64,000 bases of DNA, taken from the NCBI GenBank assembly GCA_963846325.1, contig CAWJVO010000009.1, positions 251,083 through 315,082 of the forward strand, in the 5' to 3' direction. The position numbers were made by a program, and so were the translations under genes. This document shows positions 17,504 to 55,928 of the stretch, one piece after another (the stretch's first letter is position 1; the number at the start of each line of letters is the position of its first letter). The notes beneath the pieces are model-generated. The model was given only the letters and a program-made list of their open reading frames with translations, was not told where the DNA came from and searched no databases. This stretch comes from an uncultured bacterium (GTDB lineage: Bacteria; Krumholzibacteriota; Krumholzibacteriia; Krumholzibacteriales; Krumholzibacteriaceae).

Positions 17504-17591
17504 CCACCACCACATCCTTGAGCCGAAGATACTATACCGCGAAGGCGCGGATTATTTCAACAGAAAAAAAATCAGCCCTGACGGAATTCGA

Positions 17592-18887
17592 TCATCTCGT
17601 CAATCCCAGCCTCCTGAGCGTCTCTTCCCCCCGATCGCTCCCTTTCTCGTAGCCGTACCATCCGTCGGCGATCCTGCCCCGGATATCTATGATGTAGTTG
17701 AGCGGCAACGCGCTCAGTCCCGTCGCCGTCCGGTATTTGCCGTGAAACACCTCCCGCGCCGCGGCCGTCGTATCGACGACGTTCGGGAACCGTATCGACT
17801 CCTCGCGAAGAAATTCCTCCGCCGGCTCCCTGCCGTCCGCGAAGTTGAAGCCGAGCACGACGAGCCCCTCTCCCGCGTATTTGTCCTGAAGGCCCTGCAG
17901 ATGGGGAAGCTCCTTGCGGCACGGCAGGCAGCTGAGCCGCCAGAACGAGAGCCAGACTACTTTGCCGCGATGCTCCGACAGCCGGAATCGCGAGCCGTCG
18001 AGAAGTACGAGATCGAAATCGGGCGCTTCGCTCCCCGGTTTCAAGAGACCGTCGTCGAGCGATTGCAGCCGGTACTCCTCCCATCCGGGGGGAGGCTTCC
18101 ACTTGAAAATGTCCTTCGAAATCGCGCCGTCGACGACGACGTCGCGCCACCGCTCGCGCACGACGATATCGCGCTTTCCTCTCACGGTTTCCTCGAGCAT
18201 CCGGGGCAGGCGGTCGCGTCTCGCGATCCAGAACACCCTCGTCCGCAGGCCCTTCAGATAGCTCGCCTCGACGATATCGCACACTTCGCCGTCCGCGTTG
18301 ACCGAGCCGCCGCTCCTCACGCTTTCGAGAAGCGCGTCCATGAGATCGGGACTTCCGTGGAAGATGCTCGGATCGAGGATCGTCATCGACATCCCGGTGC
18401 CGAGAACGCTCGTTTCGCGCGCGATCGAGTGATCGCCTTTCCGCGCGTCCTTCCGGAGATACGAACTCCCGACGCCCCGCGCGTTCGACGCGGAATCGCT
18501 CTCGTGGATATAGGGTCTTCCGTCCGGCCAATAGATCCACATCTGCCGGCCGTCGAGGACGATGACGCCCGTTTTCGTCCCGTCCTCGCTCTTCGATTCG
18601 AGCCGCGCGTAGTTGGGCTTCGCGAGCGAAAGCCGATAGAGCGAGCGGCCGATATCCTTTCCGCCGGTCTCCCGGACGTACTCGCTCTCGAAGGAAAGCG
18701 AGCGCGCCTCCCGCATCGCCGCGTGCATGCCCCGGTAGATCGCGAGCGCCGCGGCGTCCCCCCGCACGGCGACGCCGGATCCTCGCCCGCTCGGCGCCGC
18801 TCCGAAAGCGGAGAACGCCGCGAGCGCCGAAAGAAGGCCCGCGACGAGCGCCGAGACGTTCCCGAACCCCTTCATACGAGTCCCCAT
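17592..18887 (-). CDS. TlpA/ResA-like thiol-disulfide oxidoreductase with N-terminal LolA-like domain
   Basis: A signal peptide (MKGFGNVSALVAGLLSALAAFSA) is present. The C-terminal thioredoxin fold has a CxxC site (WLSFWRLSCLPCRKELPHL). Confidence 0.7.
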   Translation of the reverse strand: MGTRMKGFGNVSALVAGLLSALAAFSAFGAAPSGRGSGVAVRGDAAALAIYRGMHAAMREARSLSFESEYVRETGGKDIGRSLYRLSLAKPNYARLESKSEDGTKTGVIVLDGRQMWIYWPDGRPYIHESDSASNARGVGSSYLRKDARKGDHSIARETSVLGTGMSMTILDPSIFHGSPDLMDALLESVRSGGSVNADGEVCDIVEASYLKGLRTRVFWIARRDRLPRMLEETVRGKRDIVVRERWRDVVVDGAISKDIFKWKPPPGWEEYRLQSLDDGLLKPGSEAPDFDLVLLDGSRFRLSEHRGKVVWLSFWRLSCLPCRKELPHLQGLQDKYAGEGLVVLGFNFADGREPAEEFLREESIRFPNVVDTTAAAREVFHGKYRTATGLSALPLNYIIDIRGRIADGWYGYEKGSDRGEETLRRLGLTR

Positions 18888-21019
18888 GCCTTCCTCAATA
18901 TCCATTCGATTCCGAGGAGCAGGACGATGCCCGCGAGAATCGCGGCGTTTCCGCGAACCTCCCGGGTATCCCTCCGTTCGACGCGCCGATCGGAGAGATT
19001 CAATCGCCGGGGGAGCGAGTCGAGACCGGCGCCCTCGAGATATGAGCCGCCCGTGTCCCTCGCGATCCTTTCGAGGAGGGAGGCATTCCGCGACGGGTCG
19101 AGGAGCTCGACCGATACGCCCGCGACGGAGAAGGAGGCCGCCGCCGAGATTCCGCTCCCGGAACCGCTCGTTTCCGAAACGGTCACGGCGTAATCGCCGG
19201 GGGGCAGCGGATCGAGCGCCGCGCGGTAGTACCCCCGCCGCTTCGGATCGGGCTCGAAGGCGACGGTGCTCACGGAAACGTCGCGGCCCTCCCCTTTTCT
19301 TCGCACCTCTCCCCGTATCCCTTCGGGAGGGCGCCTGCTCCCGATATACGCGCCGAGCTTCACGCGATCTCCGGTGCGATAGACGGTCCGGTCCGGATCG
19401 ACCGCGAGCGCGGGCGCGCCCGCGCCTTCGGCAAGGCTCTGCACGAGCCCGCCGAAAAACGATTCGTATACCTTCCGCCCCTCCTCTCCGGCGAGCTTCC
19501 ATCTCCAGAGAGGAAAACCGAGAACGGCGCCCGAGAGCCCTTCGCCGGACCGCCCGAGGACGAGAAAGGGCGTCCTCGCTCCGCGATCCTCGAGAACGAG
19601 CGGTATCCGCGATCCCGAAGCCGCCGCGAGTCCCGCGATCCTCGCCGTGAGCGGCGGCATGGCGTCGAGACCTCCGTCCTCGGCGAGGCTCGAAACGATC
19701 GCGTCGCCGGCTCCCTCCGCCGAAACCCGGGCGAAGCCCTCCGCGTACTCGATCCTCGGACCGGATGTGCGCCTGAGGCCCAATACCGGCTGAAGCAGAT
19801 CGAACGACACCCCCCTCGCGAGGGGGGAATTCTCGTCCGCGACGAAGAGAACGCTTCCGCCCGCCTTGACGAACGCGTCGAGAGCCTCCGCGTTCGGCCG
19901 CGCGTCGAAGAGCTTCGCGTCGTCGGAGACGATCACGAGATCGTACCTCCCGATCCCCGCCGCGCCCGCGGCGAACGTCCATGGCGCGTTCCCGGGATCG
20001 ACGGCGAAACCCCCGCCCGCCTTCCATGAAACGGTTTCGACTTCGAGCCGTTTCGAGCCCTTGACGAGATCCCGGACGAACGTCATGTTCCAGTCGGGAT
20101 ATTGATCGATATAGAGAATCCGCACCTTGTCCTTGAGGACGTCGAGCCTGAACGATTCGACGTTGTTTTCCCGGTGCTCCTCCCCCGCGAGGGGCAGCGC
20201 CTCCACCGAGAGCCGGCGCTCCCCTTCGGCGTCCGCCGCATAGTCGAGGGTGACGCCGATTATCTCGTCGTCCTTCTTCACCGTCAGATTCGCGCTGTCC
20301 TTGATCCGTTCCCCCTCGAGAAGGCGCACGACGATCGTCGCGCCCTTGAAACCCGCGGCGCGGATAACCGCCTCGACGGGGACGGTCGTTCCGCGGTAGC
20401 CGACGCGGTCCGCCGCGATTTCCTCGATGGAGACGTCGGCCGCGGCGATCGTATCGCCGAACCCGACCGCATGGACCGGCGCCGCGACGGGCTCGCCCGA
20501 GGAGACCATTCCGCGCGTGACCCGGCCGTCCGTGAGGATCACGATTGCGGCGGGATTCCGGGAACGGTACCTTCTCTGCACGGCTCCGAGAGCCCCCCAA
20601 ATGTCCGTGCCCTCCCCGTCGGCCCTGACCGCGCTGTCCGCGCGGAGCGGATCGCTCGAAAGCGCGTCCGCGAAGGGCACGACCTCGACCTCCGCTTTCG
20701 CGCTCTCGAGAGCGGCGCGAAACCGCGCGAGGCGCCCGAGGGCGTCGTCGAATCTCGATTTTCCCGACGAATCCCTGATTTCCATGCTGCGGGAGCGATC
20801 GAGAAGAACGAGCACGAGCGGTTTTCTGATCTCGACCCTTTTCGAGATGAACACGGGATTGACGAGAAGAAGAGCGAGGAGAGCGAACGCCCCGATCCTC
20901 ATCGCGGCGAGGAGCGCGCGACGAACGAAGGGAAGGGGCGGGAACGTCCTTCGATACAGAATGAACGTGAGCGCCGCGAGCGCCGCGGCGACCGGTATTT
21001 TCCAGGGCTCGAGATGCAT
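18872..21019 (-). CDS. BatA-like membrane protein with von Willebrand factor A domain
   Basis: Two N-terminal TM helices are followed by a vWA MIDAS-like motif (VLVLLDRSRSMEI...ILTDGR). A C-terminal TM is present (ILAGIVLLLGIEWIL). The start is taken at the internal Met MHLEPWKIPVAAALAAL. Confidence 0.65.
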   Translation of the reverse strand: MHLEPWKIPVAAALAALTFILYRRTFPPLPFVRRALLAAMRIGAFALLALLLVNPVFISKRVEIRKPLVLVLLDRSRSMEIRDSSGKSRFDDALGRLARFRAALESAKAEVEVVPFADALSSDPLRADSAVRADGEGTDIWGALGAVQRRYRSRNPAAIVILTDGRVTRGMVSSGEPVAAPVHAVGFGDTIAAADVSIEEIAADRVGYRGTTVPVEAVIRAAGFKGATIVVRLLEGERIKDSANLTVKKDDEIIGVTLDYAADAEGERRLSVEALPLAGEEHRENNVESFRLDVLKDKVRILYIDQYPDWNMTFVRDLVKGSKRLEVETVSWKAGGGFAVDPGNAPWTFAAGAAGIGRYDLVIVSDDAKLFDARPNAEALDAFVKAGGSVLFVADENSPLARGVSFDLLQPVLGLRRTSGPRIEYAEGFARVSAEGAGDAIVSSLAEDGGLDAMPPLTARIAGLAAASGSRIPLVLEDRGARTPFLVLGRSGEGLSGAVLGFPLWRWKLAGEEGRKVYESFFGGLVQSLAEGAGAPALAVDPDRTVYRTGDRVKLGAYIGSRRPPEGIRGEVRRKGEGRDVSVSTVAFEPDPKRRGYYRAALDPLPPGDYAVTVSETSGSGSGISAAASFSVAGVSVELLDPSRNASLLERIARDTGGSYLEGAGLDSLPRRLNLSDRRVERRDTREVRGNAAILAGIVLLLGIEWILRKAWGLV

Positions 21020-21163
21020 CGGCTTCTCCCTCGCGCGCGGCCGTCGATGCATGCTAGCAGAGAGAGGAGCCGGCGTCAAAATCGAAAGACCGATTCGCAG
21101 CCCGGGGCGGGCGAATAGTGAACGTCCGGGGACGGCGCGGCGCACCGGCGGGAAGAGAGAGAG

Positions 21164-21622
21164 CTATTCGGTCTTGTGCCCCGGCGAGGTCACGACCCGG
21201 GCGCCTTTGCCGTCCGAAGCCGGATTTTCGCCGGAATCGACGGACTTCGCTCCGGCGTCCCCCGAGGCCTTCCGGTAGCTCTTCACGGCCTCGTCGACCG
21301 TATCGAAGCTCTGGAGAATGGTCTGGAACTCGAGCAGCTCGAAAACTTCGTAGACGTCGCCGATCATCGCCGCGAGCCTCAGATCGCCGCCGTTCTCTCG
21401 AATCGACTTGATCTCGCTGATGAATATGCCCCAGCCGGCCGAACTGATGTAGTTCACGCCGCCGAGGTCTATGACGATATTGTAGCGGCCCTTCTTGAGA
21501 AGCCTCTTCATGCTCTCTTCGAGCTCGGCCGATGTGGTAGTATCCACGTACCCCTGAACGGACAGCACCGACACATCCGCGTTCTCCTCGGGTCTCGAAA
21601 AAGATACGTTGATCCCTTCCAT
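21164..21622 (-). CDS. STAS-domain anti-sigma-factor antagonist (SpoIIAA/RsbV-like)
   Basis: The STAS phospho-serine motif is present (IVIDLGGVNYISSAGWGIFISE). Confidence 0.8.
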   Translation of the reverse strand: MEGINVSFSRPEENADVSVLSVQGYVDTTTSAELEESMKRLLKKGRYNIVIDLGGVNYISSAGWGIFISEIKSIRENGGDLRLAAMIGDVYEVFELLEFQTILQSFDTVDEAVKSYRKASGDAGAKSVDSGENPASDGKGARVVTSPGHKTE

Positions 21623-21649
21623 ACCAACCTCGTTTCTATAGCCCTTTCA

Positions 21650-22022
21650 TCAATCCTGAATCCTTGTATTCTGATGCAAAGCGAAGGCGGCGAGCGCCTC
21701 TTCCTTCGAATTATACGGCGTCAGGAGCGTATTGAACTCGAGAAGATCGAATACCTCCCGCACGTCGACGTGCATCGACGCGAGCTTGATGTCCCCGTTC
21801 CGCTGCCTGATTCCCTTGATCTCCCCGACGAAAATGCCCCATCCCGCGGAGCTGATGTATTCCACGTCGCCGAGATCGGCGACGATCCGCACGCTGTTCG
21901 ACGAAACGAGATCGTTGAACTTGTCCTCGAGGAACTGCGCCGTGCCCGAGTCGACGATCCCGCGCAATTTCAGGACGACGACGTTATCAACGAAATCTTC
22001 ATCTATAACGAGCTTGTCCATA
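21650..22022 (-). CDS. STAS-domain anti-sigma-factor antagonist (second stand-alone copy)
   Basis: The motif IVADLGDVEYISSAGWGIFVGE is present. The likely start is MDKLVIDEDF. Confidence 0.8.
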
Positions 22023-22066
22023 AATCTGCCGGTCCTCTCCTGTGCCCACCCCGATACTAGCAAACT

Positions 22067-23185
22067 TCAGTCCAATAGTGCCTTAAGGAGGATAAATATG
22101 CCTTGCCGGTCGTTCTCGGACAACCGGAGATTCTTCTGGGCCTTTTGATAGCTCGTGTTTATTTCGAGCGCTTTTCGGAAGGCTTTGCTCGCCATGTCCA
22201 TGTAAATCTTGCATTTTGCAGTATAGAGAATGCCAAGGCTGTTGTGACCGTCCGCGAAGGTCGGGTTCTGGTCGACGATCTCCCGCACGCGGTCGAGATA
22301 TCTCTCGATCTCCTCCTCCTGGAACTCCTCCCCTTCATAGATCAGCATCATGTAGAGATCGAGAATGATGTCGTCGATGCCGCCGCGGATCGACGGCTGC
22401 TTCGCCGACTCGAGAACCCCGTAGGCGCCGTCGTAATCCTTCCCCCTGAAGAGCGCCCGCGCTTCCTCGATGCGATCGTGCATGAGATACGGATCGAGCT
22501 GCTCGGCGCGCTCGAGGCTGCCCAGAAAGGTCTCGTCGAGGTCGCGCGACAGCTCGTAATCCTCCTTCACGATGGTATTGAGGAGAAACGCGCGCGCGAG
22601 ATTGAGGTACGGCTCGCCGTAGTAGAGGTTGAGCTCGATGGCCCGCTTGAAGCACTCGATCGCCGGCTTGCACTTCTGCTGCTTGAGATGAATCTTGCCG
22701 AGAAGGTTGTGCATGTCGGGATAATCCGGCGTTCTCTCGAGGCCGGTCCGCGTCGCCTCGAACGCTCTCTCGAAATCCCCCATCTCGTAGTACGATTCTC
22801 CGATGATCATGCCGGACAGGGAATCCTTGTTCCCCTTCTTGACCGATTTCAGCGCTTCCTGGATCGCTTCGTCATAGAGATGCCGCTTGAACAGCGCCTG
22901 GGCGATTCTGAGATGAGGTTTCGGATCCTCCGAGGAACGGATCCGCCCGCTCACGTCGAGAATGAGCATGAATTTCCGCTTGTTCTCGAGATGCGCTTCC
23001 TTCGTCTCGCGGCGCGCGTCGTCGGGCGTCCCTTTGCCGTCGACTTCCGTCTGAACCGTATCGAAGAGGACTCCGTCCTTGAAGAACGAGCTCTGAATGA
23101 CGCCCTTCTTCATCAGGAGACTCGTCTGGAGGAAATATTTCTTTCCTCCATGATCGATCTCTTCTCTCAATTCGAAACTGGTCAC
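22067..23185 (-). CDS. TPR-repeat protein
   Basis: Multiple tetratricopeptide-like helices are visible (AIECFKRAIELNLYYGEPYLNLARAF, AFRKALEINTSYQKAQKNL). The length is 372 aa. Confidence 0.75.
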   Translation of the reverse strand: MTSFELREEIDHGGKKYFLQTSLLMKKGVIQSSFFKDGVLFDTVQTEVDGKGTPDDARRETKEAHLENKRKFMLILDVSGRIRSSEDPKPHLRIAQALFKRHLYDEAIQEALKSVKKGNKDSLSGMIIGESYYEMGDFERAFEATRTGLERTPDYPDMHNLLGKIHLKQQKCKPAIECFKRAIELNLYYGEPYLNLARAFLLNTIVKEDYELSRDLDETFLGSLERAEQLDPYLMHDRIEEARALFRGKDYDGAYGVLESAKQPSIRGGIDDIILDLYMMLIYEGEEFQEEEIERYLDRVREIVDQNPTFADGHNSLGILYTAKCKIYMDMASKAFRKALEINTSYQKAQKNLRLSENDRQGIFILLKALLD

Positions 23186-23236
23186 TGTGCCTTCTTTCGG
23201 GCGAGGCGCCCTTCCGCGCGCGGGCGGGAGCGGACG

Positions 23237-24012
23237 CTAGAGACCCGGCGCCGCTTCCACGACATCCTCATGCGAACGTTCGAGACCGAGGATTTCCTCG
23301 GTGAGATGATAATAATCGAACGCGCCCCGCGAAAGCGGCGCGTGCTCGAATACCGTCTTGTTCTGGCCGGGCGCCTCGCGGATCGCGGCGTTCATCCGTA
23401 TGATCGTCGTGAAGATCCGCTCCCCGAAGCGCTCGCGCAGATCGCCGAGCATCTGGTGCGACAGCCGGACGCGGGAATCGTAGAACGTGGGAAGCAGCCT
23501 GAACGATATGGGCTTCCGGCTGTTGAGAGTCTGGATCTCCTCGATGATCCCCGCCGTTTGCTCCGCGCCCGCCCGCGAGAGGTAATCCATGGAGACCGGA
23601 ATGATGACCTCGTCGCAATAGGCCAGCGCGTTGATGTTGATGAGATTGAGGGACGGAGAGCAGTCGCATATCACGTAGTCGCATCCCTTGAGGTGCTTGA
23701 GCGAGTCCGCCAGCCGGCGCTCGCGGTGTTCCCGCGCCCCGAGCTTGAGCTCGACTTCCGCGAGCTTGCGCCCCCCCGAGTCGATGAAGAAGAGATTGTC
23801 GCGAACCTGGAGGATGTCGACCTCGCCCGACGTCAGAAGATCGGCGAGCCCCCGGGGACTCTCGACGCCGAAGGTGACCGCGACGCTCCTCTGCGGATCG
23901 CAATCGATGAGCAGGATGCGCCGCCCGGACAGCGAGAGGCCGTGGGCGAGGCTGACCGCCGTCGTGGTCTTGCCCGTCCCCCCTTCATCGTCATGATCGC
24001 GTACCGCTTCAT
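23237..24012 (-). CDS. ParA/MinD-like P-loop ATPase, apparently frameshifted at a G6 run in the Walker-A codons
   Basis: The ATG at 24012 gives MKRYAIMTMKGG, after which the frame is lost. The -1 frame continues GGTGKTTTAVSLAHGLSLSGRRILLIDCDPQ...CDCSPSLNL and reaches 23237. One extra G in the C/G run at 23978-23983 would restore MKRYAIMTMKGGTGKTTT. Confidence 0.65.
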
Positions 24013-24016
24013 AGGC

Positions 24017-27000
24017 CTATTTCTTCCGGTGCTTCGGGTTCTGTTCCGACTCCGAGAGCTTCTTCCCGTATTCCTCCCACCCCAGCTTCTTGATGCGGCG
24101 ATCCTTGTCCTCGCGCACGTCCGTGCGCTGCTTGAAATCGATGAAGATGACCTTCTCCTCTTCCTTCACGGTCTTGAGCGGTTCGAGAGGAATGATGTCG
24201 GCCTTGCCGAGCAGCGCGGAAGCGAGGTCCTGCCCCGCATCCTCCCGTTCGGCCGGACCGCCGGAGACGGATTCTTCCTTTTTCGGGCGGCTCTTCGCCC
24301 CCGCCTGCGCTATCTTCTCCCGGCGCGCGGCCTCCCCGAGCTTCTTCGGAAGCCTGAGCTCCTCGAGCGCGCGCTCGAGCGTCCCGAAATGCGGAATGAG
24401 CGGCTCGAAGCCGAGATCCCTGAATATCTTGAGTATCGTCGAATTCATCCCCGCGAGCGCGAGCGCGCCTCCCGAGGCCCCCAGCTTCTGCATATACTTG
24501 ACGACGATGCCCCATCCGCTGCTGCTGATATATACCATATCGGACAGATCGAGCACAAGGTGAGCGGGATCCTCGGCGAGGCACTGCTCGAGCCTGCTCT
24601 CGAGCTCGTCGGAAGTCGAGGAATCGACCGCCCCGGCGATCGAGAACACGACGATTCCCTTCGGGCCTTCCTTCGCTTTCGCCACGCCGATGGCGAGTCC
24701 CGGTTCTTCGGGCTCCGCGCCGATCGATCCGCCGGAAACCGGCTGAACGGGCTTCCCGGCCTCCTCCGTATCGACCGCGTCTCCGGAGATCGCTCCGTCC
24801 GGCGACGGAACCTTGAAATTCTCGATCGCTTCGCCGAGGACGCCGAACGACCGCATGATGGAATCGAATCCGAGCATGTGGAAGATGCTGTGCACCTCTT
24901 CATCCATGCCGAATATCTTGAAGTCTCCCCCGCGCGCCCGGATATCCTTTATTCTCGACGCGAAGACGCCCCACCCGCTCGAGCTCACGTATTCCACGCG
25001 CGACATATCGACGACGAGCTTCACGATGCCCCGGTCGACGAAGCTGTCCAGAACCGAGCGGAGCTTGACGCAGCTCACCGTGTCGATGACGCCGTCGAGG
25101 GAGAGGATCGTGATCTCGCCGCGATCGCCGACGGTTCCCGCTTCGATCTTGAGGGCCGTCCAGGGAGCCTCTTCGTCCTGAACGTCGAGAATCTCGGGAG
25201 CTCCGGGCGATTCGGAAGCCTGTCTGACCTCGACGGGCTTGAGCGCCGCCCGCCGCCGCGACACCTCTTCGAGCTTGTTCCGGCGCTCGACGAGCGGCAA
25301 GGCGACGTATTCGACCGCCGCTTCGACGTCCGCGAACTGCATGATGATCTCCTGGAAGCCGAGCAGCTCGTAGATATCGTACACTTCGCTCGTCATGCCG
25401 GCGAGGACGACGTCTCCGTCCCCCTCCCTGAGAGATTTCACCCTTCCCGTGAATATCCCCCAACCGCCGCTCGAAATATAGGTCACGTCCTTGAGGTCGA
25501 CGATGATCTTCCGATAGCCGTACTCGTAGACGCTTTCGAGGATACCTTCGAGCTCTCCCGCCGAAGAGGAATCGAGATGCCCCTTGACCCGGAGAACGAC
25601 GATCCCTCCCTCGAGCTCCTCCGAAGCGACCTCCACGGCGCGCCCCTCGCCCGACCCGAACTCCGGGTCCCGCGCGATACTCCGGTCGCGCGCGCGCGTG
25701 GGCACGGGTTTCGCCGGGCGGGCCGCCCGAGCAGGGCGCGGAGCGGGCGCTTCCTCGATCTCCGGTTCCCCGGGAATCGAAGCGATCCCTTCTCCGGCGG
25801 CGAGCTTGAACGCGTCCGGCTCCGCGCGCACCTGCGCGGCCAGCAGCGCCTTGAACTGCTCGTCGGTGATGATCTTGTTGCGGCGGAGGTACTCGAGCCT
25901 CAGATCGTACGTGTTGAGACGGATGCGTTTGAGCTCGTCGTAGACGATCGCCTGGGTGAGGCGCTCCTTCTCCTCCCGCCCTTCGTTGAACAAGTCCGCG
26001 ATCTTCTTCGCGCCGTACTTCGGATTCTTCCTGATGATCTCGAGTATGCCCTTGCGCTGCTCGAGGCTCACCCGTTTGATGTCGTCCTCTTTTCGAAGCG
26101 TCTTGTCCTGAAGCCCCCGGTCGCCCATCTCGACGACGCGCTTCTTGTAGCGATAATAGGTCGACGGCGAAACCTTCATCATGCGGCACGCCTCGGCGAC
26201 GGGGATCCCCTGGATCTCGACAAGATCGAGGAGCTTCTTGCGGATGCCGAAGAGCACCTCGTCCGCCATGAGCTTTTCCTTGATCGCGACGACGGTGATG
26301 TCGTCGTTCTGCGGCATGTCTCCGGTGAACTCCTTGATCGCCGCGCTCAGCCGATCGATGAACTCCTGCGGGGTGAGCTTTCCGCTCGCCTTGATGAGCT
26401 GAAGGAGACGCTCCTCGCCGTACTGAGCTCGATCGACGTTCATCGCTTCCGTGACGCCGTCGGTGTAGATGACGAGCATGTCGTCTTTTTTCAGCTTGAT
26501 CTTCTCGACGTCGATCGAGCGGCGAAACAGCGTATCGTCGGGAAGGCTGATCCCGACGGGGAATCCACGGGGATTGAGGAAATAGGTCTCGTCCGTCTCC
26601 GCGCGGTACAGAATCATCGGATTGTGCCCCGCGCTCGCGTAGCTGATGATCCGGTTCTTCGAGTCGAGAATCGAATAGAAGATCGTGACGAACATTCCCT
26701 TCTTCATATCCTCCGTCACGAAGTCGTTCATGCGGGCCATGACCTCGGCGGCGGAGTAGTTGCCGCGCGCTTCCATTCTGAGCGCGGTTCGTATCATCGT
26801 CATGACGAGCGATCCGGGCACCCCCTTGCCGGAGACGTCCGCCACGACGACGCCGAGCGTATCGTCGTCGACTTTCACGAAGTCGTAGTAATCCCCGCCG
26901 ACCTCCTTCGCGGCCTTGTAGTAGCTCGCGATGTCGTAGCCGCCGATCTCGGGCACCTTCTTCGGCAGGAGGGTGTGCTGGATCTCCTGGGCGACCTGCA

Positions 27001-28279
27001 TCTCCTTCTGGAGGCGCTCCTGCTCGACGACGTTCTTCTGCGCCGCGCGGAACTTCGAGGTGATTTCGTTGAACGCCCGCGCGATCTCGCCGATCTCCTT
27101 GGGGCCTTCGATCTTGAGCTCGTCGTTGAGCGATCCCTCGCCGATCGCCCGCACGCCGTCGGTGAGCGCCTGGATAGGCCGGACGAAAACCGCGATGAGA
27201 AGGTACAGGAGCGCGACGCCCGCGGCGAACACGCCGATGAGAAGCAGCGTCATCATCGGCCTCGGATCGACCAAATCCTCGACGACCGCGGCGATCGAGA
27301 CACCCATGACGATCCTGCCGATCGGTTCGGCGTTGGCCCGCTGCGTCCCCGCCCGGTACACGGGCTGATGAAACTCCCTGACCGCGCCGACTCCCGGCAT
27401 TTGAACGGTCCGCGACAGGCCTCCCTGCGCGAGCGCTTCCGTTCCGGCCGGAATGTCGTACGCCGCGAGGAGCTCGTCGACGTCGCTCGTGGCGACGACG
27501 ATCCCGTCGCCGTCGACGAGCCTGATATATTTCGTTTCGGGATACTTTTTGAGCTGCTTGATGAAGGTTTCGTTCAGGCGCATGCGCTCGACCGAGAACT
27601 GATCCTCGCCGAGAGCGTTTTCGCTCGCCGCGGCGATATTCTCGGCGACGGACTTGCGCTGGAGCCACACCTGCGCGTACCGCCCGCGAACCTCCTGCGT
27701 CTGTCGATAGAACAGGATCGACCAGAGAAATACGATGAGCCCGAGAAGACCGAGCGTCGCGCGAAGCGCGAACTTGAAGCGGAGCGTCGAAGTCCACCGG
27801 GGCTTCATGAGCGAGGCGAAGAGCGGTCTCTGGGCGACCGAAACGGCCGAGCTCTTCGCCATGTAGAGCCGGTTGCCCCCCGGCGCGGCCGAATAGCTGA
27901 GCGTGTCCATGAGCCGGTTCATGAGGTAGATGCCGAGTCCGCCCTTTTTCCCGATTTCGACGTAGAGATCGAGATCCGGCTCTTTCACTTTCGACCAGTC
28001 GAACGGCTCCCCTCTGTCGAAGATGTTGATCTCGATCTTCCCCGGCTCGGCCTGGACGTCGATCCTGACGTCCCCCACCTTGTCCCGGTACGCGTGCTTG
28101 ATGATGTTCGTGCACGCCTCGTCCACGGCGAGCTTCGTGTTGTTGGTCTCGCTCTTCGAGAAGCCCGCGCGATCGCAGACATCGGCGATGAAGTCCCTGA
28201 CCTCGCTCAGGTTGTTCTCGTCGGCGGGCACCTCGAGATGGAACGTTTCGCGATCGGTGAGGAGACCTTTCTTCTTCAC
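24017..28279 (-). CDS. 1420-aa multidomain membrane signalling protein: RsbW-type kinase + 2TM sensor + HAMP + PP2C phosphatase + HTH pair + 3 STAS domains
   Basis: A single uninterrupted ORF with a GTG start that overlaps the upstream stop as GTGA. See the domain sub-features below. An alternative Arg-rich frame and the long antisense ORF were rejected. Confidence 0.85.
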   Translation of the reverse strand: MKKKGLLTDRETFHLEVPADENNLSEVRDFIADVCDRAGFSKSETNNTKLAVDEACTNIIKHAYRDKVGDVRIDVQAEPGKIEINIFDRGEPFDWSKVKEPDLDLYVEIGKKGGLGIYLMNRLMDTLSYSAAPGGNRLYMAKSSAVSVAQRPLFASLMKPRWTSTLRFKFALRATLGLLGLIVFLWSILFYRQTQEVRGRYAQVWLQRKSVAENIAAASENALGEDQFSVERMRLNETFIKQLKKYPETKYIRLVDGDGIVVATSDVDELLAAYDIPAGTEALAQGGLSRTVQMPGVGAVREFHQPVYRAGTQRANAEPIGRIVMGVSIAAVVEDLVDPRPMMTLLLIGVFAAGVALLYLLIAVFVRPIQALTDGVRAIGEGSLNDELKIEGPKEIGEIARAFNEITSKFRAAQKNVVEQERLQKEMQVAQEIQHTLLPKKVPEIGGYDIASYYKAAKEVGGDYYDFVKVDDDTLGVVVADVSGKGVPGSLVMTMIRTALRMEARGNYSAAEVMARMNDFVTEDMKKGMFVTIFYSILDSKNRIISYASAGHNPMILYRAETDETYFLNPRGFPVGISLPDDTLFRRSIDVEKIKLKKDDMLVIYTDGVTEAMNVDRAQYGEERLLQLIKASGKLTPQEFIDRLSAAIKEFTGDMPQNDDITVVAIKEKLMADEVLFGIRKKLLDLVEIQGIPVAEACRMMKVSPSTYYRYKKRVVEMGDRGLQDKTLRKEDDIKRVSLEQRKGILEIIRKNPKYGAKKIADLFNEGREEKERLTQAIVYDELKRIRLNTYDLRLEYLRRNKIITDEQFKALLAAQVRAEPDAFKLAAGEGIASIPGEPEIEEAPAPRPARAARPAKPVPTRARDRSIARDPEFGSGEGRAVEVASEELEGGIVVLRVKGHLDSSSAGELEGILESVYEYGYRKIIVDLKDVTYISSGGWGIFTGRVKSLREGDGDVVLAGMTSEVYDIYELLGFQEIIMQFADVEAAVEYVALPLVERRNKLEEVSRRRAALKPVEVRQASESPGAPEILDVQDEEAPWTALKIEAGTVGDRGEITILSLDGVIDTVSCVKLRSVLDSFVDRGIVKLVVDMSRVEYVSSSGWGVFASRIKDIRARGGDFKIFGMDEEVHSIFHMLGFDSIMRSFGVLGEAIENFKVPSPDGAISGDAVDTEEAGKPVQPVSGGSIGAEPEEPGLAIGVAKAKEGPKGIVVFSIAGAVDSSTSDELESRLEQCLAEDPAHLVLDLSDMVYISSSGWGIVVKYMQKLGASGGALALAGMNSTILKIFRDLGFEPLIPHFGTLERALEELRLPKKLGEAARREKIAQAGAKSRPKKEESVSGGPAEREDAGQDLASALLGKADIIPLEPLKTVKEEEKVIFIDFKQRTDVREDKDRRIKKLGWEEYGKKLSESEQNPKHRKK
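24365..25624 (-). other. domains: three tandem STAS (anti-sigma antagonist) domains
   Basis: The phospho-Ser motifs are VTYISSGGWGIF, VEYVSSSGWGVF and MVYISSSGWGIV. Each lies in a module of about 105 aa. They are separated by Pro/Ala/Glu-rich linkers. Confidence 0.75.
25880..26233 (-). other. domain: transposase-type helix-turn-helix pair (HTH_28 / IS630-Tnp-like)
   Basis: The motif IPVAEACRMMKVSPSTYYRYKKRV is followed by RKGILEIIRKNPKYGAKKIADLFNEG. It resembles the N-terminal DNA-binding modules of IS630/IS3-family transposases. No catalytic domain is present. Confidence 0.45.
26276..26992 (-). other. domain: PP2C-type Ser/Thr phosphatase (SpoIIE/RsbU-like)
   Basis: The SpoIIE-like motifs are GGDYYDF, ADVSGKGVPGSLVM, ASAGHNP and YTDGVTEA. 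It covers aa 430-668. Confidence 0.75.
27020..27760 (-). other. domain: TM1 - extracytoplasmic sensor region - TM2 - HAMP
   Basis: TM1 is LGLLGLIVFLWSILFY. A hydrophilic segment of about 150 aa follows. TM2 is MMTLLLIGVFAAGVALLYLLIAVFV. HAMP-like heptads then follow (IQALTDGVRAIGEGSLNDELKIEG...IARAFNEIT). Confidence 0.6.
27860..28222 (-). other. domain: HATPase_c anti-sigma-factor Ser/Thr kinase (RsbW/SpoIIAB-like)
   Basis: The N-box is EACTNIIKHAY and the G-boxes are DRGEPFD and GGLGIYLM. It covers aa 20-140 of the 24017-28279 protein. Confidence 0.75.
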
Positions 28280-30180
28280 CGTTTTCCCTCCGGAACGCCC
28301 GTGTTCTCAAGCCGCTTCCGGGCTTCCTCGATATTCTTCGAGACGCTTTCGTTATCAGGATCGATGTCGAGAATCTTCTTCCACTGTTCGACGGCGCTCG
28401 TGTACTTGCCCTGGGTGAAGAATTTCATCCCTTCGATGTACAGCGCGCGAACCTGCGCCTTTTCCTTGTCGGTGAGCGGCGTCATGCGTCGCTGGGCGCG
28501 AAGCAGGAGCCTCCGTCCCTCCTCATGGGTCGGCTCGAGCCTGAGAAGCTCGCCGAGCCCGGCGGACGCCTCGGCGTACTTTCCGTCTCCGAACGCCTTG
28601 ACGGCGCCGTCGAAGAGCTCCATGACCCTGAGCTTCTTGCTCGTTTGCGTGTAATCCCTGCTCATCTCGTCGAGACGCCGGTTGATCCTGTCCGCGGCCT
28701 CTTTCGCTTCGACCGATTCGGGATCGAGCGTCCGAACGACGTTCCATTCGCCGAGGGCGGCCGCGAGCTGCCCCTGCCTCTCGAGCTCGCCCGCCCGCGC
28801 GCGATGCTGTTCCGCGAGGCTTCCGAGCTTCTCCTCGGTCTTCCCGAGGTACTCGAGCGCGCTCGCGTTCGACGAATCGAGCGCGAGGACGTTGCGCCAT
28901 TCCGCGCGGGACAGAACGTAGTCGTCCGTGCTGTAGTAATCGAGGCCGAGCTTGAAATGCCGGCTGATGAGAGCGGCCTTCTCGGCGTCCTGCGTGCGCG
29001 AGCGCTCCTCGGCGAGAATGGTCCGCTCCACGACGGCGAGCGTCTCGGCGACCGCCGTATTCGTCGGGTCGTACTCGAGGGCGAGCTTGAGCTCGTCGAG
29101 CGCCTTGCCGAGCGCTCCTTCCTTCCGGTAGCGTTCCGCCTCGCTCACGTGGCCGGAAATCCGCTTCGAGAGAATCTGCCGGATGCGTCCCTCCTCCTCG
29201 ACGAGGCGGCGCTGCTCGCGCGCAGCGATCTTCTCCTCGATCGACTCGCCGATGCGGGACGACAACGTCAGGGGATGCGAGCTCCCCGCGTCTCCGCGGC
29301 TGAAAAAGCCGTAGTCGAACGAGAAGCCCCGCCACCCGAGGCCGAGGCCCGCCGTGATCGACTCGGAATCGAATCCGACGCGGACGCTGACGAAATTCTT
29401 GAACAGGTATTCCGCGCCGAACCGGAACTCTTTCTCATCGCGCTGCGGAGCGTTCATCTGGAGCGCGAGCGAGAGCGACGAACCGTTCGCGAACGGATAG
29501 ATGTATCCCGCGCCCACCATGATCGTCCGGTCGACCTTGTCGGTCAGCGTGACGAGCTTCGTTTCCGCCCCGACGATATCCTGCAGGTTGCATCCCACGG
29601 CGACTCTCCGGACGTACTTCGGCCGGTACACGAATCCGATATCGAGCCCCGTTCCGGCGGCCGAGAGCTCGCCGACCCTCTGGTTGAGCACCTTGACCGA
29701 GGCGCCGGCCGTCACGTCGCCGACGTAACGCCACGGGAGATCGAACGCGTAGCCGAGAATCACCTGGCTCTCGCGGTAGTCGAGCTCTCCCGTTTCCCTG
29801 CTGAATTCGTCGAATCCTCTGATACCGCCCGTTCCGACCGTCATGATCCCGAGGCCGATCGAGCCGGCCGAGATCGTCGGATACACGAGCCCCAGAAAAT
29901 CGTACGTCGCGTCGCTGAAGCCCGACAGAAGCTGGATATGATTGAGCACCGCGCCGGGACGGCGGCACAGCCGCAGCGCCGCGGGATTGTAATAGAGAAC
30001 GGAAGCGTCGTCCCCGATCGCGGAAAAAGCGCCTCCGAGGGCGATCGCCCGGGATCCCGCGCCGATGCTGAAGACGGACCGCGTGCCCCCCGTTCCATCC
30101 TGCGCGGCGGCGTCAACCGAAGCGACGGAGAGAACGCAGGCGATCGATATGAGGATGACGAGCTTCTTCATGATACCCAC
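28276..30180 (-). CDS. FadL/PorV-like outer-membrane beta-barrel domain fused to a C-terminal TPR-repeat region
   Basis: A signal peptide (MKKLVILISIACVLSVASVDAAAQ) is followed by a FadL/PorV-type N-terminal motif (SRAIALGGAFSAIGDDASVLYYNPAAL). The barrel spans about 300 aa. About 330 aa of TPR-like helices follow (ALDELKLALEYDPTN..., AVEQWKKILDIDPDN). The family call rests on recalled motifs. The stop overlaps the downstream GTG start. Confidence 0.55.
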   Translation of the reverse strand: MGIMKKLVILISIACVLSVASVDAAAQDGTGGTRSVFSIGAGSRAIALGGAFSAIGDDASVLYYNPAALRLCRRPGAVLNHIQLLSGFSDATYDFLGLVYPTISAGSIGLGIMTVGTGGIRGFDEFSRETGELDYRESQVILGYAFDLPWRYVGDVTAGASVKVLNQRVGELSAAGTGLDIGFVYRPKYVRRVAVGCNLQDIVGAETKLVTLTDKVDRTIMVGAGYIYPFANGSSLSLALQMNAPQRDEKEFRFGAEYLFKNFVSVRVGFDSESITAGLGLGWRGFSFDYGFFSRGDAGSSHPLTLSSRIGESIEEKIAAREQRRLVEEEGRIRQILSKRISGHVSEAERYRKEGALGKALDELKLALEYDPTNTAVAETLAVVERTILAEERSRTQDAEKAALISRHFKLGLDYYSTDDYVLSRAEWRNVLALDSSNASALEYLGKTEEKLGSLAEQHRARAGELERQGQLAAALGEWNVVRTLDPESVEAKEAADRINRRLDEMSRDYTQTSKKLRVMELFDGAVKAFGDGKYAEASAGLGELLRLEPTHEEGRRLLLRAQRRMTPLTDKEKAQVRALYIEGMKFFTQGKYTSAVEQWKKILDIDPDNESVSKNIEEARKRLENTGVPEGKR

Positions 30181-30184
30181 GCTC

Positions 30185-33100
30185 TCACTTTGCGACGGCG
30201 ATCTTGAAGAGCGCCGATTGCGAGCCCGCCTCGACCTTGCACATGTACACGCCGTTTCTCACGAGCTCTCCCCGGTCGTTTCGGCCGTTCCACGGGATCT
30301 CGTGCCATGTCCCTTCCGGCGCGCCCGTGCCTCCGGCGTCTCCCGAGCCGATGCTCCTGGTCCAGACGAGCCGGCCGCCGAGGTCGTAGATCTTGATCGA
30401 AACGGCCGAGTTCTTCTTCAGGAAATAGCAGATCTTCGTCGGCTCGGTCCCCGCCCTGAACGGATTCGGATAGTTGTGGACGTATTCGTCGAAACGCGCG
30501 CTCATGATCGAGAGCGGACCGCTCCGGAAATGCCCCGCGATGTCGCCTCCGTCGAGCTCCAGCGCGACTCCGATCCGCGTCCCCGATTCGCTGATGGAGA
30601 CGACGACGTCCGCGCTGCGCCCGATCTCGAACCTGATCTCCCCGGCGAGCGCCCTCGCGGCGATGTCGGCCGCGAGCAGCAGCGTGTCGGCGCTGCCGGG
30701 CGCCAGGGTGAATCCGTGTCCGACGACGATCGGAACGGGATTGCGGCCCGCGACCGCGGCCGAATACTCCGATCCGCCGACCGCGCACGAGAGCGAAGCG
30801 ACCGACCTGGCCGGATCCGCGGCGGGACTGCCCCGTCCGTCCTCGATCGCCACGTAGAGCGTGTCGAGACCGATGGTGAAACCGGAAGCGTTTTTCAGGA
30901 CGATCCGCATCACGGGAACGTCCTGAGCGCCCTGAGGAACGACGAACGGCGGTATCGAATCCGCGCTCGACGCGTTCGACATCAGAACGGAGCCCGCCTG
31001 CGTCTGAACGGGGATGAACGCCGCTCCGGTCGATATCTCGCACGGGAGGTTCGTATTGACGTCGGTCGCGTACGGCTCGATGAGCCTCACCTCGATGTTT
31101 CCCGGGGAGGTCGGCGACGCGGGCGCCCTGACGTTCCATACGACGCTCTGTCCCGGGTAGAACGGCTTGCGATACGTCTCCGGGGCACCGTCGAGCGCAT
31201 ATCCCTGCCCGGCGGGTAGCACGATCTCCATCCGCGCTCCCGTCGTATCCAGCGCCGCTTCTCCCGATCTCGCCGCGGTCGCCTCGATCGTGAACGGCAG
31301 ACTGATCGACACGGATCCGTCGAGAGCCTCGTCCGGTCCCGAGATTCGAGCGCTCATGGCGAGCGCCGGCCTGATCAGCACGTGAACGGGAAAGACGACG
31401 CGGCACGTCCCGACGACGCGGCCGGAGTTGACGTCCTTCCCGCCCGCGCGAACGACGAGCGTGTCGGCGTCGACATGGCCCATCGGAGCCCTCATGATCC
31501 AATCGACCGTCACCTGCGTCCCCGTCCCCCTGCCGATGAACCGGGTCCGGTCGCCGATGACGGAGAATCCCGCCGGCGCCGAGATTTCGATCCATACCGA
31601 GTCGGTGCTCGCCGAGGGGCTGAAAATCGCCCGGGCCGTGAAATCCTGCTCGGTCGAGAGCGTGCCGTCGACGGCTCCCTGCGGAGCGGCGATCGAAATC
31701 GCGCATCCGCTCACGCCTCCCGCTTCCACGGTCCGGAGCGCCACGGCCGATTCGATCAGGCGGACGGCCGCCGGAAGGGCCGTATTGACGCCGTCGGGGA
31801 TCCGGCTGATGCGCGCTTTCACGGTGTCCTGCGACGGCGCCGCGGGCGCGACGAGCGTCCAGGAGACGGCGCTGCCGGTTCCGAGACGCTTCACGAGCGG
31901 ATCCGCCGAGTTCGCGAGGAGCACGGACGGCGGGAGCGCGAGAGTCACCTCTCCCGTCGTATCGACGAGCGCCTGCCCTTCGTTGGAGACGGCGGCGGTG
32001 ACGACGAAGGTCTGGCCGACCGAGAGCGTGTCGTCGAGAGCGCCCGCGGGGGCCGTGACCGAGACGCCGCACGAGAGGAGCGCGGGGAGCTCGATGCGGA
32101 GATTCTCTATCGACTCCGCCGCCTGGGCCGGATAGACGCGCTCGCCCGTGTTCACCGAAACCGCGTAGACGATCGACGAGGTCAATATCTCGCTCCCGGG
32201 CGCCGAAGCGGCGACGATCGAGAATGCGAAATCCCTTTCCGACTTCGAGGGGACGGACACGAGCGAATCGCCGACGATCGCGGTTCGCGTGGCGCCGTTC
32301 GAGACGAGGTGCACGTTGACGCTGTCGAGATCGTCCCCCCCCGTATTCTCGACGCGGACGGTCACGCCGAACGCCTGATCGGTATCGACGACCGACGTGT
32401 TGGGGAAGAGCGCGTTATTCGGCGCGTCGCTCGTCACCGAAACGATCCGCAGACCGGACGGCGCCTTGACGCGCACCGATCCCGAGCCGGCCGCGGAGCC
32501 AGGCTCGCGAAGCGGATCGTTCATATCCGTCCATCCGGCTCCGGCGTCGATCGCGACCATGCCCGTATCGCCGCCGGTCGAGGAGATGCGATAGATGAGC
32601 GAATCCGAGGCTCCCCCGGCGAGTGAGAAGGAGCTCGAGCCCGAGCCGAGCGTATCGGGAGCGATGACGAAATAATCGTAACGCCTCGTGCCGAGGAGCG
32701 AGAACGCAAGATCCGAAGCCGCCGGAGCGCGGAGCGCGAGAGGCGCCTCTCCCCTGTTCGCGATGGAGACGCTTACCGTCCAGTCCGCGGCCTGGCTTGC
32801 GTTCACCTCGCCCTGCGAAGGTCTGACGGAGAATATCTCGAGCGCCGCGAGGCTCTGTATGATCGCGCGCGTCGTGTCGTCGAGAGCCGGATTGACGCGG
32901 ACGAGATCGCTCTCGCGTGAGTTGCCGTCGAGAGCGCCCCTGATATGCGCCCTGAACGTTTCGAGCCCGCTCGCGGTCCCCGCCGTGATCCTGAAGGTGT
33001 CGGACTCCGCCGCCGCGCCGCTCAACGCGCCCAGGACGAGGAGGGTATCTTCGATGCCGGAAGAGCCGGAGTGTTCGAGCGCCACCCGAATACTCTCAGC

Positions 33101-41641: not shown

Positions 41642-42895
41642 CGTCGACCGAGTCCAGCCCCGTTCGCCACAGCCAACGCCTTGTCCACCGTTACCGTCGA
41701 AACCGCCGCGCTGAAGAGTCCCGCGGCAAACGTCACGTTTTGCGTCTGCGTAATCGGCGTCGCGCCCACCCTCGCGCTGACCGTCTTCAGCTCCGCCTTC
41801 GTCGACCGCAGCTTCCCTACCAGCCGCCCATCCGCCCCCGTCACTCCCGACGAGGGAGTGATCGTGTTCAACGTCCCCGTCGCCTCTATCGTCACCGAGC
41901 TCCCCGCTATCGGGTTCCCCTGAGCGTCCGTCACAAGCGCCGTCACCGCGATCGAGTCAGTCCCGTTCGCCACAGCCAACGCCTTGTCCACCGTTACCGT
42001 CGAGACCGAGGCGCTGAACGGCCCCGGGGGTGAACGTCACGTTTTGCGTCGTGCGTGATAGCCGTCGCGCCCACCCTCGCGCGTGACCGTCTTCAGCTCC
42101 GCCTTCGTCGACCGCAGCTTCCCTACCAGCCGCCCGTCCGCCCCCGTCACTCCCGACGAGGGAGTGATCGTGTTCAACGTCCCCGTCGCCTCTATCGTCA
42201 CCGAGCTCCCCGCTATCGGGTTCCCCTGAGCGTCCGTCACAAGCGCCGTCACCGCGATCGAGTCAGTCCCGTTCGCCACAGCCAACGCCTTGTCCACCGT
42301 TACCGTCGAAACCGCCGCGCTGAAGAGTCCCGCGGCAAACGTCACGTTTTGCGTCTGCGTAATCGGCGTCGCACCCACCCTCGCGCTGACCGTCTTCAGC
42401 TCCGCCTTCGTCGACCGCAGCTTCCCGACCAGCCGCCCGTCCGCCCCCGTCACTCCCGACGAGGGAGTGATCGTGTTCAACGTCCCCGTCGCCTCTATCG
42501 TCACCGAGCTCCCCGCTATCGGGTTCCCCTGAGCGTCCGTCACAAGCGCCGTCACCGCGATCGAGTCAGTCCCGTTCGCCACAGCCAACGCCTTGTCCAC
42601 CGTTACCGTCGAAACCGCCGCGCTGAACGGGCCCGGCACGAACGTAACTCCTCGGGAATTCGTGATCCCGACCCCTCCCGCCTTTGCGCTGATCGTCTTC
42701 AACTCCGCCTTCGTCGACCGAATTTTCGAGATCATCCGCCCGTCCGAACCGCTCAATCCCGCGGGAGGACTGATCGTGTTCGAGCTGCCTGTCGCTTCGA
42801 CAGTCACAACGCTTCCGCTTATCGGATTCCCCTGCGCGTCGGATACAAACACCGTTACGGTGACCGAGTCCGCCCCGTTCGCCGTCACCGTCGTT
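40467..42895 (-). repeat. tandem array of 303-bp (101-aa Big_1) coding repeats, several copies 100 % identical
   Basis: Identical plus-strand shadow ORFs recur at 40770, 41073, 41376 and 42290 (period 303). Divergent copies flank the array at 40467 and 42593. Confidence 0.85.
41638..41991 (-). CDS. adhesin fragment (one Big_1 repeat unit) isolated by frame disruptions
   Basis: The 117-aa sequence is identical to the repeat consensus. It is flanked by indel-containing repeat junctions. Confidence 0.5.
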   Translation of the reverse strand: MDKALAVANGTDSIAVTALVTDAQGNPIAGSSVTIEATGTLNTITPSSGVTGADGRLVGKLRSTKAELKTVSARVGATPITQTQNVTFAAGLFSAAVSTVTVDKALAVANGAGLGRR

Positions 42896-45480: not shown

Positions 45481-45485
45481 CTGGC

Positions 45486-45507
45486 AGAAAACCTGGCACG
45501 CGCCAGG
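45486..45507 (-). terminator. possible terminator after the CBM48-lipoprotein cluster
   Basis: On the minus strand a CCTGGC-GCGT-GCCAGG hairpin is followed by TTTTCT. The stem is short. A direct repeat aaaacctggca x2 lies adjacent. Confidence 0.3.
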
Positions 45508-51264: not shown

Positions 51265-54008
<2,744 letters not shown>

Positions 54009-55866: not shown

Positions 55867-55928
55867 GCAGCCGGCGCTCCGCGCTATCGCTTCCCTTCCG
55901 AATCGGGCCCGTTCACGAAGCGTGCGCG

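Follow-up and report, generated by a model that had tools for sequence, protein, structure and literature searches.

Partner switching is mostly understood as a form of sigma-factor control, and regulation of the type IX secretion system (T9SS) is known mainly from PorXY/SigP in Porphyromonas. Rv1364c of Mycobacterium tuberculosis contains PAS, PP2C, kinase and STAS domains in one polypeptide, its STAS domain is phosphorylated in cis, and the protein was described as restricted to pathogenic mycobacteria (PMC9138534). SypE of Vibrio fischeri, in which a regulatory module lies between an N-terminal RsbW-like kinase and a C-terminal PP2C domain (PMC3610818), acts on the STAS protein SypA in biofilm formation and has an output without a known sigma factor (PMC3610818, PMC8256260). 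In Bordetella, the partner switch BtrU/BtrV/BtrW controls a type III secretion system (T3SS), and for Chlamydia RsbU a periplasmic sensor is mentioned, by citation, in the same article (PMC8256260). Here, we describe a protein of 1420 amino acids (aa) encoded on contig CAWJVO010000009.1 of an uncultured Krumholzibacteriota bacterium, within a stretch of 64,000 nucleotides (nt) that we refer to as the window. Its gene lies in one row with those for a PorV-like outer-membrane protein and a giant T9SS adhesin. We infer an inner-membrane, bifunctional serine kinase/phosphatase sensor that belongs to a module dedicated to this secreted surface protein, a reading whose chances we put at roughly even.

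A predicted membrane-bound kinase/phosphatase sensor with three STAS domains

The sensor is encoded by a minus-strand open reading frame (ORF; 28279..24017) with a GTG start; the other genes and domains described below lie on the same strand. Pfam returned HATPase_c_2, sCache_3_2, HAMP, SpoIIE, HTH_23/HTH_32/HTH_28 and three STAS domains, in that order, and the NCBIfam profiles agreed with these assignments. The full layout comprises an RsbW-type kinase, a first transmembrane segment (TM1), an sCache domain, a second transmembrane segment (TM2), HAMP, PP2C, a bipartite helix-turn-helix (HTH) module, three STAS domains and a basic tail. An earlier note on this DNA, made without database searches, had read the same ORF and domain order from the letters, and the kinase, PP2C and STAS assignments it proposed are borne out by profile and structure matches and by intact catalytic motifs. 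Invariance of residues was judged in an alignment of 26 homologous sequences, in which the low-complexity interdomain linkers were variable.

The RsbW-type serine kinase domain spans residues 17-142 (27854..28231; HATPase_c_2, PF13581, E-value of 4.7e-31; RsbW, PDB 6m36, 1.1e-15), and its N-box (D53-Y64), G1 box (D88/G90) and G2 box (G113-G116) were invariant. The PP2C/SpoIIE phosphatase domain covers residues 471-667 (26279..26869; PF07228, 1.1e-51), and its closest solved structure is that of Rv1364c (3ke6, 6.5e-17). Residues D463, D481, D607 and D659/D660, which we take to be the conserved metal-binding motifs of PP2C as in SpoIIE, were likewise invariant.

Between the two enzymes lies a predicted envelope sensor. 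The hydrophobic segments at residues 168-186 and 346-364 agree with the membrane topology proposed in the earlier note. TM1 (~residues 168-190; 27710..27778) is preceded by positive charges and was helical in an AlphaFold2 model, and TM2 (~residues 343-366; 27182..27253) has a hydropathy peak of 2.75. The part bracketed by them had been called an extracytoplasmic segment, which can now be refined to a periplasmic single-Cache (PDC) sensor domain (~residues 195-342; 27254..27697). The sCache_3_2 profile match to residues 207-335 was marginal (29.0 vs. a cutoff of 28.4 bits), and the AlphaFold2 model of residues 160-420 (pLDDT 80.6) showed a single-Cache/PDC fold. Foldseek ranked the TM-Cache-HAMP structure of WalK first (9a5d, 3e-8; WalK extracellular domain 4ywz, 1.5e-5), followed by DctB and CitA, and the NCBIfam WalK model aligned to residues 185-424. 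The extracellular domain of WalK is regulated by partner proteins. The HAMP domain (~residues 367-412; 27044..27181; PF00672, 1.6e-09, profile match 361-405) contains the invariant stretches P368-G382 and G392-N404. Pfam found no Response_reg (REC) domain in the protein, the central module being TM-sCache-TM-HAMP. Sequence analysis places both the kinase and the PP2C domain on the predicted cytoplasmic side of this sensor.

The three fused STAS domains (Pfam, 1.1e-58) lie at ~residues 885-990 (25310..25627; PF01740, TIGR00377 and SpoIIAA structure 1th8, 1.9e-08), ~residues 1045-1145 (24845..25147) and ~residues 1203-1304 (24368..24673), the latter two also with Pfam, NCBIfam and solved-structure matches. 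Their acceptor equivalents are S937, S1100 and S1253, where the register relative to Ser58 of SpoIIAA was placed by manual alignment. Invariant positions included S936-S937-G-G-W-G in the first domain, S1099, S1100, G1102, W1103 and G1104 in the second, and S1253, G1255, W1256 and G1257 in the third. STAS domains with a serine equivalent to SpoIIAA Ser58 are the presumed substrates, three in cis and two encoded downstream. The protein ends in a motif of invariant columns, D1393...G1400-W-x-x-Y-G-x-x-L1408, followed by a K/R-rich tail (24020..24103).

The bipartite, paired-like HTH module is embedded between the PP2C and STAS domains at residues 680-800 (25880..26242; HTH_23, HTH_32 and HTH_28, Pfam span 680-768). 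NCBIfam transposase profiles aligned to the same segment, including those of IS481 (N-terminus, 2.7e-14), IS630 (8.1e-06) and the IS3 N-terminus. Only positions 2-114 of a 284-position transposase profile were aligned, and the Pfam and NCBIfam scans of the protein found no DDE/rve transposase catalytic domain. An AlphaFold2 model of residues 668-812 (pLDDT 85) showed two helical units, for which Foldseek ranked the DNA-binding domains of Pax5/Pax6, TnsB and SETMAR/Mos1 highest (best E-value 0.13). Much of the segment was invariant in the 26-sequence alignment, and the module was present in every phylum sampled. From these matches, the module probably derives from a transposase DNA-binding domain. 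An active transposase or an insertion was rejected, as the HTH part alone is matched and is kept in all phyla.

Coupling to a PorV-like protein and a giant T9SS adhesin

The sensor gene is part of a tight gene row, which runs from the adhesin through a PorV-like gene, the sensor, a ParA-like gene, a gene for a tetratricopeptide repeat (TPR) protein and two STAS genes to a membrane protein. Directly upstream of the sensor, a 634-aa protein (28276..30180) combines a signal peptide, a PorV/PorQ-family β-barrel (~residues 37-307) and a TPR domain of ~330 aa with TPR Pfam matches. Its N-terminus is hydrophobic and signal-like. The protein exceeded the cutoff of the family model NF033709 (104.4 vs. 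90 bits) and failed the equivalog models for PorV (18.9 vs. 250 bits) and PorQ (64 vs. 220 bits). The TPR domain would be periplasmic. The PorV-TPR gene is joined to the sensor ORF by a GTGA stop/start overlap, and in relatives this junction has gaps of 0-2 nt or short overlaps. By sequence analysis, the sensor gene is predicted to be translationally coupled to the PorV-TPR gene.

Next to the PorV-TPR gene lies that of the giant adhesin (30185..45066), a T9SS cargo with a signal peptide, ~13 Big_1/Invasin_D3 repeats, a CARDB-like region and a type A C-terminal sorting domain. Pfam matched Big_1 (1.6e-102), Invasin_D3 and CARDB. The C-terminus passed the T9SS type A model TIGR04183 (26.7 vs. 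a cutoff of 23 bits), and the match of Pfam Por_Secre_tail to it was below cutoff. The earlier note had described a 14.9-kb T9SS adhesin; the sorting domain agrees with this, whereas the reading frame is split. Here, the adhesin reads as at least two ORFs because several frame changes lie inside a tandem array of ten near-identical 303-nt Big_1 units (40467-43542), and these likely reflect a repeat or indel error of the assembly.

To the extent that sequence databases cover it, the sensor is not rare. A search of 5.8 billion proteins identified at least 120 homologues of full length that share its Pfam domains (45-99% identical, 1378-1575 aa). The named ones come from metagenome-assembled genomes (MAGs) of Candidatus Krumholzibacteriota and Latescibacterota from many projects, and a search for cultured carriers, seeded with one homologue, returned only MAGs. 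In databases, homologues are automatically annotated as 'anti-sigma factor antagonist' or 'RsbU / anti-sigma regulatory factor', of which the former name is misleading for this protein. The gene row was kept in every relative examined, among them four at 47-99% identity.

When one genome per GTDB species was scanned, at least 568 relatives emerged, and the best 80 loci were surveyed for synteny by tblastn with each window protein and domain. The loci were labelled Krumholzibacteriota, Latescibacterota, Eisenbacteria, Zixibacteria, KSB1, Calditrichota, FCPU426 and others, where labels are those deposited and some MAG labels are doubtful. The PorV-TPR gene lay directly upstream of the kinase/PP2C gene in all 71 loci with enough upstream sequence. 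A same-strand ORF of at least 1000 aa ended next to the PorV-TPR gene in 56 of 58 loci; these giant proteins share their last ~218 aa across phyla, and the corresponding end of the adhesin is 30-49% identical to those of the other phyla. The link to the adhesin and the PorV-like gene, which had been proposed from this one locus, thus holds across several phyla and is stronger than claimed. In an all-against-all search with residues 1-810 of the sensor, at least ~90 clusters at 50% identity aligned end to end, from the kinase to the HTH module.

These numbers also bear on the origin of the ORF. The assembly does contain indel errors, in a G-run of the ParA-like gene, in the adhesin repeats and probably in a third gene (see below), and the HTH region matches transposase N-termini, so that the ORF might be an assembly fusion or its HTH module a functionless scar of a transposon insertion. 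We regard this as extremely improbable. The homologues are independent, they align colinearly and share invariant residues in each of the domains, the HTH module among them, and this module recurs in all phyla and throughout the clusters with no DDE/rve match. A chimeric assembly was rejected on the basis of the colinear full-length homologues from different projects, which also answers the possibility, raised in the earlier note, of an assembly fusion of separate genes.

In other phyla, the protein consists of the kinase, TM, periplasmic domain, TM, HAMP, PP2C, HTH and a variable tail, with no fused STAS domain. A separate STAS gene follows the sensor there and is the orthologue of the second stand-alone STAS gene of the window (STAS b), mostly at 47-65% identity. 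Its motif Y[IV]SSAGWGIF[IV][SG], with the near-invariant YISSAGWGIFIS, occurred in 65 of the 70 loci where the motif was recovered. Fused STAS domains were limited to the Krumholzibacteriota/Latescibacterota lineage. The three-STAS form is therefore a lineage-specific fusion, because other phyla combine a sensor without STAS with a separate STAS gene. Judged by these comparisons, the conserved core has four parts, namely a giant cargo, a PorV-like barrel with TPR, a kinase/phosphatase/HTH sensor and a STAS protein, and this core is older and wider than the fusion. In KSB1/Calditrichota-type loci, the sensor tail is long, acidic and of low complexity and ends in a TPR domain, which replaces the fused STAS domains and the C-terminal motif.

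The identity of these partners is relevant to a more classical explanation, in which the N-terminal domain would act as the anti-sigma factor of an unlinked sigma factor and be antagonised by the STAS domains, and the HTH module and the neighbours would not be the output. The kinase domain resembles RsbW and SpoIIAB by profile and by structure, Rv1364c as the nearest solved PP2C relative regulates SigF, and, to our knowledge, every well-studied member of the RsbW-type kinase family binds a sigma factor or a STAS domain. We nevertheless consider such control unlikely. Envelope proteins are the only invariant partners of the module across phyla, and the kinase is tethered at the membrane, ~25 residues from TM1. 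Pfam and NCBIfam scans detected no sigma or anti-sigma factor among the selected ORFs of the window or in the conserved neighbourhood of the relatives, which agrees with the absence reported in the earlier note.

The ParA-like gene, remaining neighbours and upstream region

A ParA/MinD-family ATPase gene (23237..24012) begins 4 nt after the sensor ORF; this gap and the GTGA overlap on the other side were both read in the sequence, as previously noted. Aligned against three relatives, the gene has six G in the run at 23983-23978, where the relatives have a seventh base. The gene has an unbroken frame in each relative examined, including a 99%-identical contig that encodes 258 aa after the same 4-nt gap. 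When repaired, the protein is also 258 aa long, has a deviant Walker A motif (KGGxGK[ST], as MKGGTGKTT) and matches ParA_partition (1.2e-24) and BcsQ (3e-24), both under the curated equivalog cutoffs. Thus, of the four neighbours listed in the earlier note, the PorV-like/TPR, TPR and two STAS genes are supported, while the ParA-like gene is not an intact ORF here owing to the missing G. The frameshifts in the ParA-like gene and the adhesin are probably indel errors of the assembly, which leave the sensor ORF untouched. Elsewhere in the window, a pyruvate phosphate dikinase gene (ppdK) looks split into overlapping ORFs in different frames (PPDK_N at 52656-54008 and PEP-utilizers at 51265-53337, minus strand), which is probably another indel.

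The ParA-like gene is present in Krumholzibacteriota/Latescibacterota and Zixibacteria-type loci and absent from the Eisenbacteria, FCPU426, KSB1 and Calditrichota loci. The C-terminal motif, in the form [WFM]xxY[GEST][KRQ][KR][LM] with a basic tail, tracked this presence and absence with one or two exceptions. Because the motif co-occurs with the ParA gene, we suggest that it is a candidate ParA-docking peptide. The main output of the module might be spatial rather than transcriptional. STAS phosphorylation would control recruitment of the ParA-like ATPase, through this peptide, and of the cytoplasmic TPR protein, and so place the site of adhesin secretion or anchoring relative to the nucleoid or the pole. 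Such positioning of large cargoes is known from other orphan ParA/MinD ATPases, an HTH module combined with a basic peptide is reminiscent of ParB-like adaptors, and the 4-nt gap, the co-occurring motif and the best matches of the repaired protein (ParA_partition and BcsQ, with the reservation on cutoffs given above) are all compatible with such a device. We find it doubtful, however, since Eisenbacteria, FCPU426, KSB1 and Calditrichota have the core in loci that lack ParA, which therefore cannot be the ancestral output.

Three further genes follow. The first encodes a 372-aa cytoplasmic TPR protein (22067..23185) with TPR Pfam matches and no hydrophobic segment, the position of which is conserved in Krumholzibacteriota, Zixibacteria and FCPU426 loci. 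The stand-alone STAS protein a (21650..22063; PF01740, 1.1e-15) is probably 123 aa long, with its start at the ATG at 22021; the same length was called on the 99%-identical contig. STAS b (152 aa; 21164..21622; PF01740, 4.9e-20) is the pan-phylum cognate STAS protein. A 757-aa ORF (18872..21145), 18 nt 3' of STAS b, encodes a membrane protein with a VWA-like domain. Its matches to VWA_2 and VWA_CoxE were below threshold, and it has hydrophobic peaks at residues 77-95 and 732-750 and a further stretch near 47-64 seen by eye. The gene is syntenic in Krumholzibacteriota and Eisenbacteria loci, and its membership in the module is uncertain. Beyond it on the minus strand are genes for a redoxin/thioredoxin-like protein with a signal peptide (17592-18950) and a lamin-tail-domain protein (15788-17515). 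The lamin-tail-domain gene is syntenic in relatives, and the redoxin gene represents a genome-specific insertion. The window also holds two further T9SS type A cargo genes on the minus strand, at 54133-56583 (subtilase with a C-terminal sorting domain) and 62892-63998 (FlgD_ig with Por_Secre_tail); the organism evidently uses T9SS widely.

Upstream of the adhesin, an exact sigma-54-type -24/-12 element, TGGCACATAGCTTGC (TGGCAC-N5-TTGC; 45104..45118), lies 38-52 nt 5' of the ATG. It is the sole match in the window at up to one mismatch. Seven related metagenome loci encode relatives of the adhesin N-terminus (49-77% identity), and all seven, a low-GC relative included, carry TGGCA[CT]-N5-[TA]TGC at -52 to -98 in diverged flanks. 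A strict-pattern search 5' of the giant genes of other phyla gave no consistent sigma-54 site, and the promoter is confirmed solely for relatives of this adhesin. This putative sigma-54 promoter appears to drive the operon. As the genes downstream of it are separated by overlaps or 4-nt gaps only, and a consensus scan found no convincing minus-strand terminator within the gene row, the regulatory genes may be co-transcribed with the adhesin.

Other conserved noncoding elements were observed in the same region. One block, TTATTGCAATTTGCTTCGGCGTGTGCTATTTTGG (~45350-45385, minus strand), lies ~280 nt further upstream, contains the palindrome ATTGCAAT and occurred in six of six loci. An AT-rich block, TAATACCAATATATTATGAAAC (45224-45245, minus strand), was kept in the four closer relatives. 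Both blocks could serve as binding sites for an activator, IHF or the HTH module. A perfect 12-nt tandem direct repeat, two copies of GAAAACCTGGCA at 45475-45498, is located ~420 nt 5' of the adhesin start and was partly kept in close relatives.

Proposed signalling and comparison with known systems

The function of the module is likely envelope-to-cytoplasm signalling tied to the adhesin. A periplasmic signal would reach the WalK-like Cache domain. Instead of sensing a small ligand, this domain would probably monitor the adhesin/PorV-like complex, the state of which the TPR domain would relay. HAMP and the helical linker may then switch the PP2C dimer on or off. Control of PP2C dimers by HAMP or coiled coils has been proposed as general for HAMP-, PAS- and REC-linked PP2C phosphatases (PMC12143880). 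The opposing activities of kinase and phosphatase would determine how far the STAS domains are phosphorylated, and unphosphorylated STAS would capture the kinase domain in a partner switch, freeing the other partner of the kinase. We favour the HTH module of the protein itself as this freed partner, because no cytoplasmic element besides it and those named above is conserved throughout; release would turn the sensor into a membrane-tethered transcription factor. In lineages with ParA, the conserved C-terminal peptide might recruit the ParA-like ATPase and place the complex, presumably as a later addition. The three fused STAS domains would raise the local substrate concentration and might sharpen or buffer the switch. 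The output, be it the HTH module, ParA docking or an unlinked sigma factor, can be proposed only conditionally, and so can the control of surface-protein export or positioning suggested in the earlier note.

Several points weigh against the proposed sensor and its mechanism. The phosphotransfer, the switch and every output are inferred from sequence, and the contact between the Cache and TPR domains is deduced only from gene adjacency. A sigma factor with a gene in some other part of the genome might just as well be bound by the RsbW-type domain. No Foldseek match for the HTH model reached an E-value of 0.001, and because this structural match is statistically weak, the assignment of DNA binding rests on the profile matches. 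The co-occurrence of ParA and the motif spans only two or three clades and may therefore represent few independent events. Finally, sigma-54 promoters need an AAA+ enhancer-binding activator, and since none is encoded in the cluster, another controller of transcription would be required.

The most specific version of the proposal combines all of these steps in one trans-envelope device found throughout the Fibrobacteres-Chlorobi-Bacteroidetes (FCB) group. In it, the PorV-like barrel would report the loading or mechanical state of the giant adhesin to the Cache domain through the periplasmic TPR domain. An intramolecular switch would follow, in which dephosphorylated STAS domains pull the RsbW-like domain off the domesticated transposase HTH. 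The targets of the tethered factor would be the conserved sites that precede the sigma-54-driven adhesin operon, and the C-terminal peptide would recruit ParA for positioning. That all of these parts hold jointly is a long shot.

At least eight candidate or recognised phyla share the module, which points to an unstudied regulatory layer for surface adhesins. The carriers are abundant sediment and soil bacteria, nearly all of them so far uncultured. The Krumholzibacteriota form, which tethers three substrate domains to their putative modifying enzymes, provides a natural experiment on the effect of fusion on a partner switch. The embedded HTH module and the ParA-linked tail offer concrete hypotheses for outputs other than sigma factors.

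Compared with known systems, the closest precedent for an all-in-one protein is Rv1364c, which likewise holds a sensor, PP2C, an RsbW-type kinase and STAS in one polypeptide. Rv1364c, however, is soluble, has one STAS domain, no HTH module and no TM, Cache or HAMP segments, and acts on a sigma factor, whereas the protein described here is membrane-embedded, starts with the kinase, carries three STAS domains and is encoded in an envelope gene cluster. The order in which an N-terminal kinase and a C-terminal PP2C flank a regulatory module is that of SypE. The central part of SypE is a cytoplasmic receiver domain, its STAS protein is separate, it has no HTH module, and its target is a polysaccharide locus rather than a T9SS adhesin. 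The syp locus is sigma-54 dependent, to which the conserved sigma-54-type element of the adhesin can be likened.

The Bacillus systems RsbU/RsbV/RsbW and SpoIIE/SpoIIAA/SpoIIAB use the same three domain families, with the N, G1 and G2 boxes of the kinase, the Asp motifs of PP2C and the STAS serine, but as separate proteins with a sigma-factor output; no sigma factor is linked here. Chlamydia RsbU and Pseudomonas aeruginosa SiaA share the layout of periplasmic sensor, TM, HAMP and PP2C, and the NCBIfam SiaA model aligned to residues 327-666 (region match, 8.1e-23; PDB 6k4e, 2.4e-9). Both systems have the kinase and the STAS-like substrate as proteins of their own and lack an HTH module. Like BtrU/BtrV/BtrW, the module described here is a partner-switching set in the context of a protein secretion system and not only of a sigma factor, but the Btr proteins are separate and soluble, target a T3SS and have no outer-membrane partner. 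The gene upstream of the sensor resembles those of PorV/PorQ/SprF-type T9SS proteins in matching the PorV/PorQ family model and in following a giant T9SS cargo gene, just as sprF follows sprB in Flavobacterium; these proteins lack the C-terminal TPR domain.

The earlier note knew of no description of such an architecture. Our literature search likewise found no paper that links T9SS/PorV with STAS/SpoIIE or describes this protein family, although the architecture is common in sequence databases and has precedents in Rv1364c, as an all-in-one protein, and in SypE, for its order. All-in-one partner switches, the kinase-regulator-PP2C order, membrane PP2C sensors and partner-switch control of a T3SS were thus already known. 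New here are the combination of an N-terminal kinase with Cache-HAMP, PP2C and an embedded paired-type HTH module, the triple STAS tether and, most notably, the invariant association with a giant T9SS cargo and a PorV-like/TPR outer-membrane protein.

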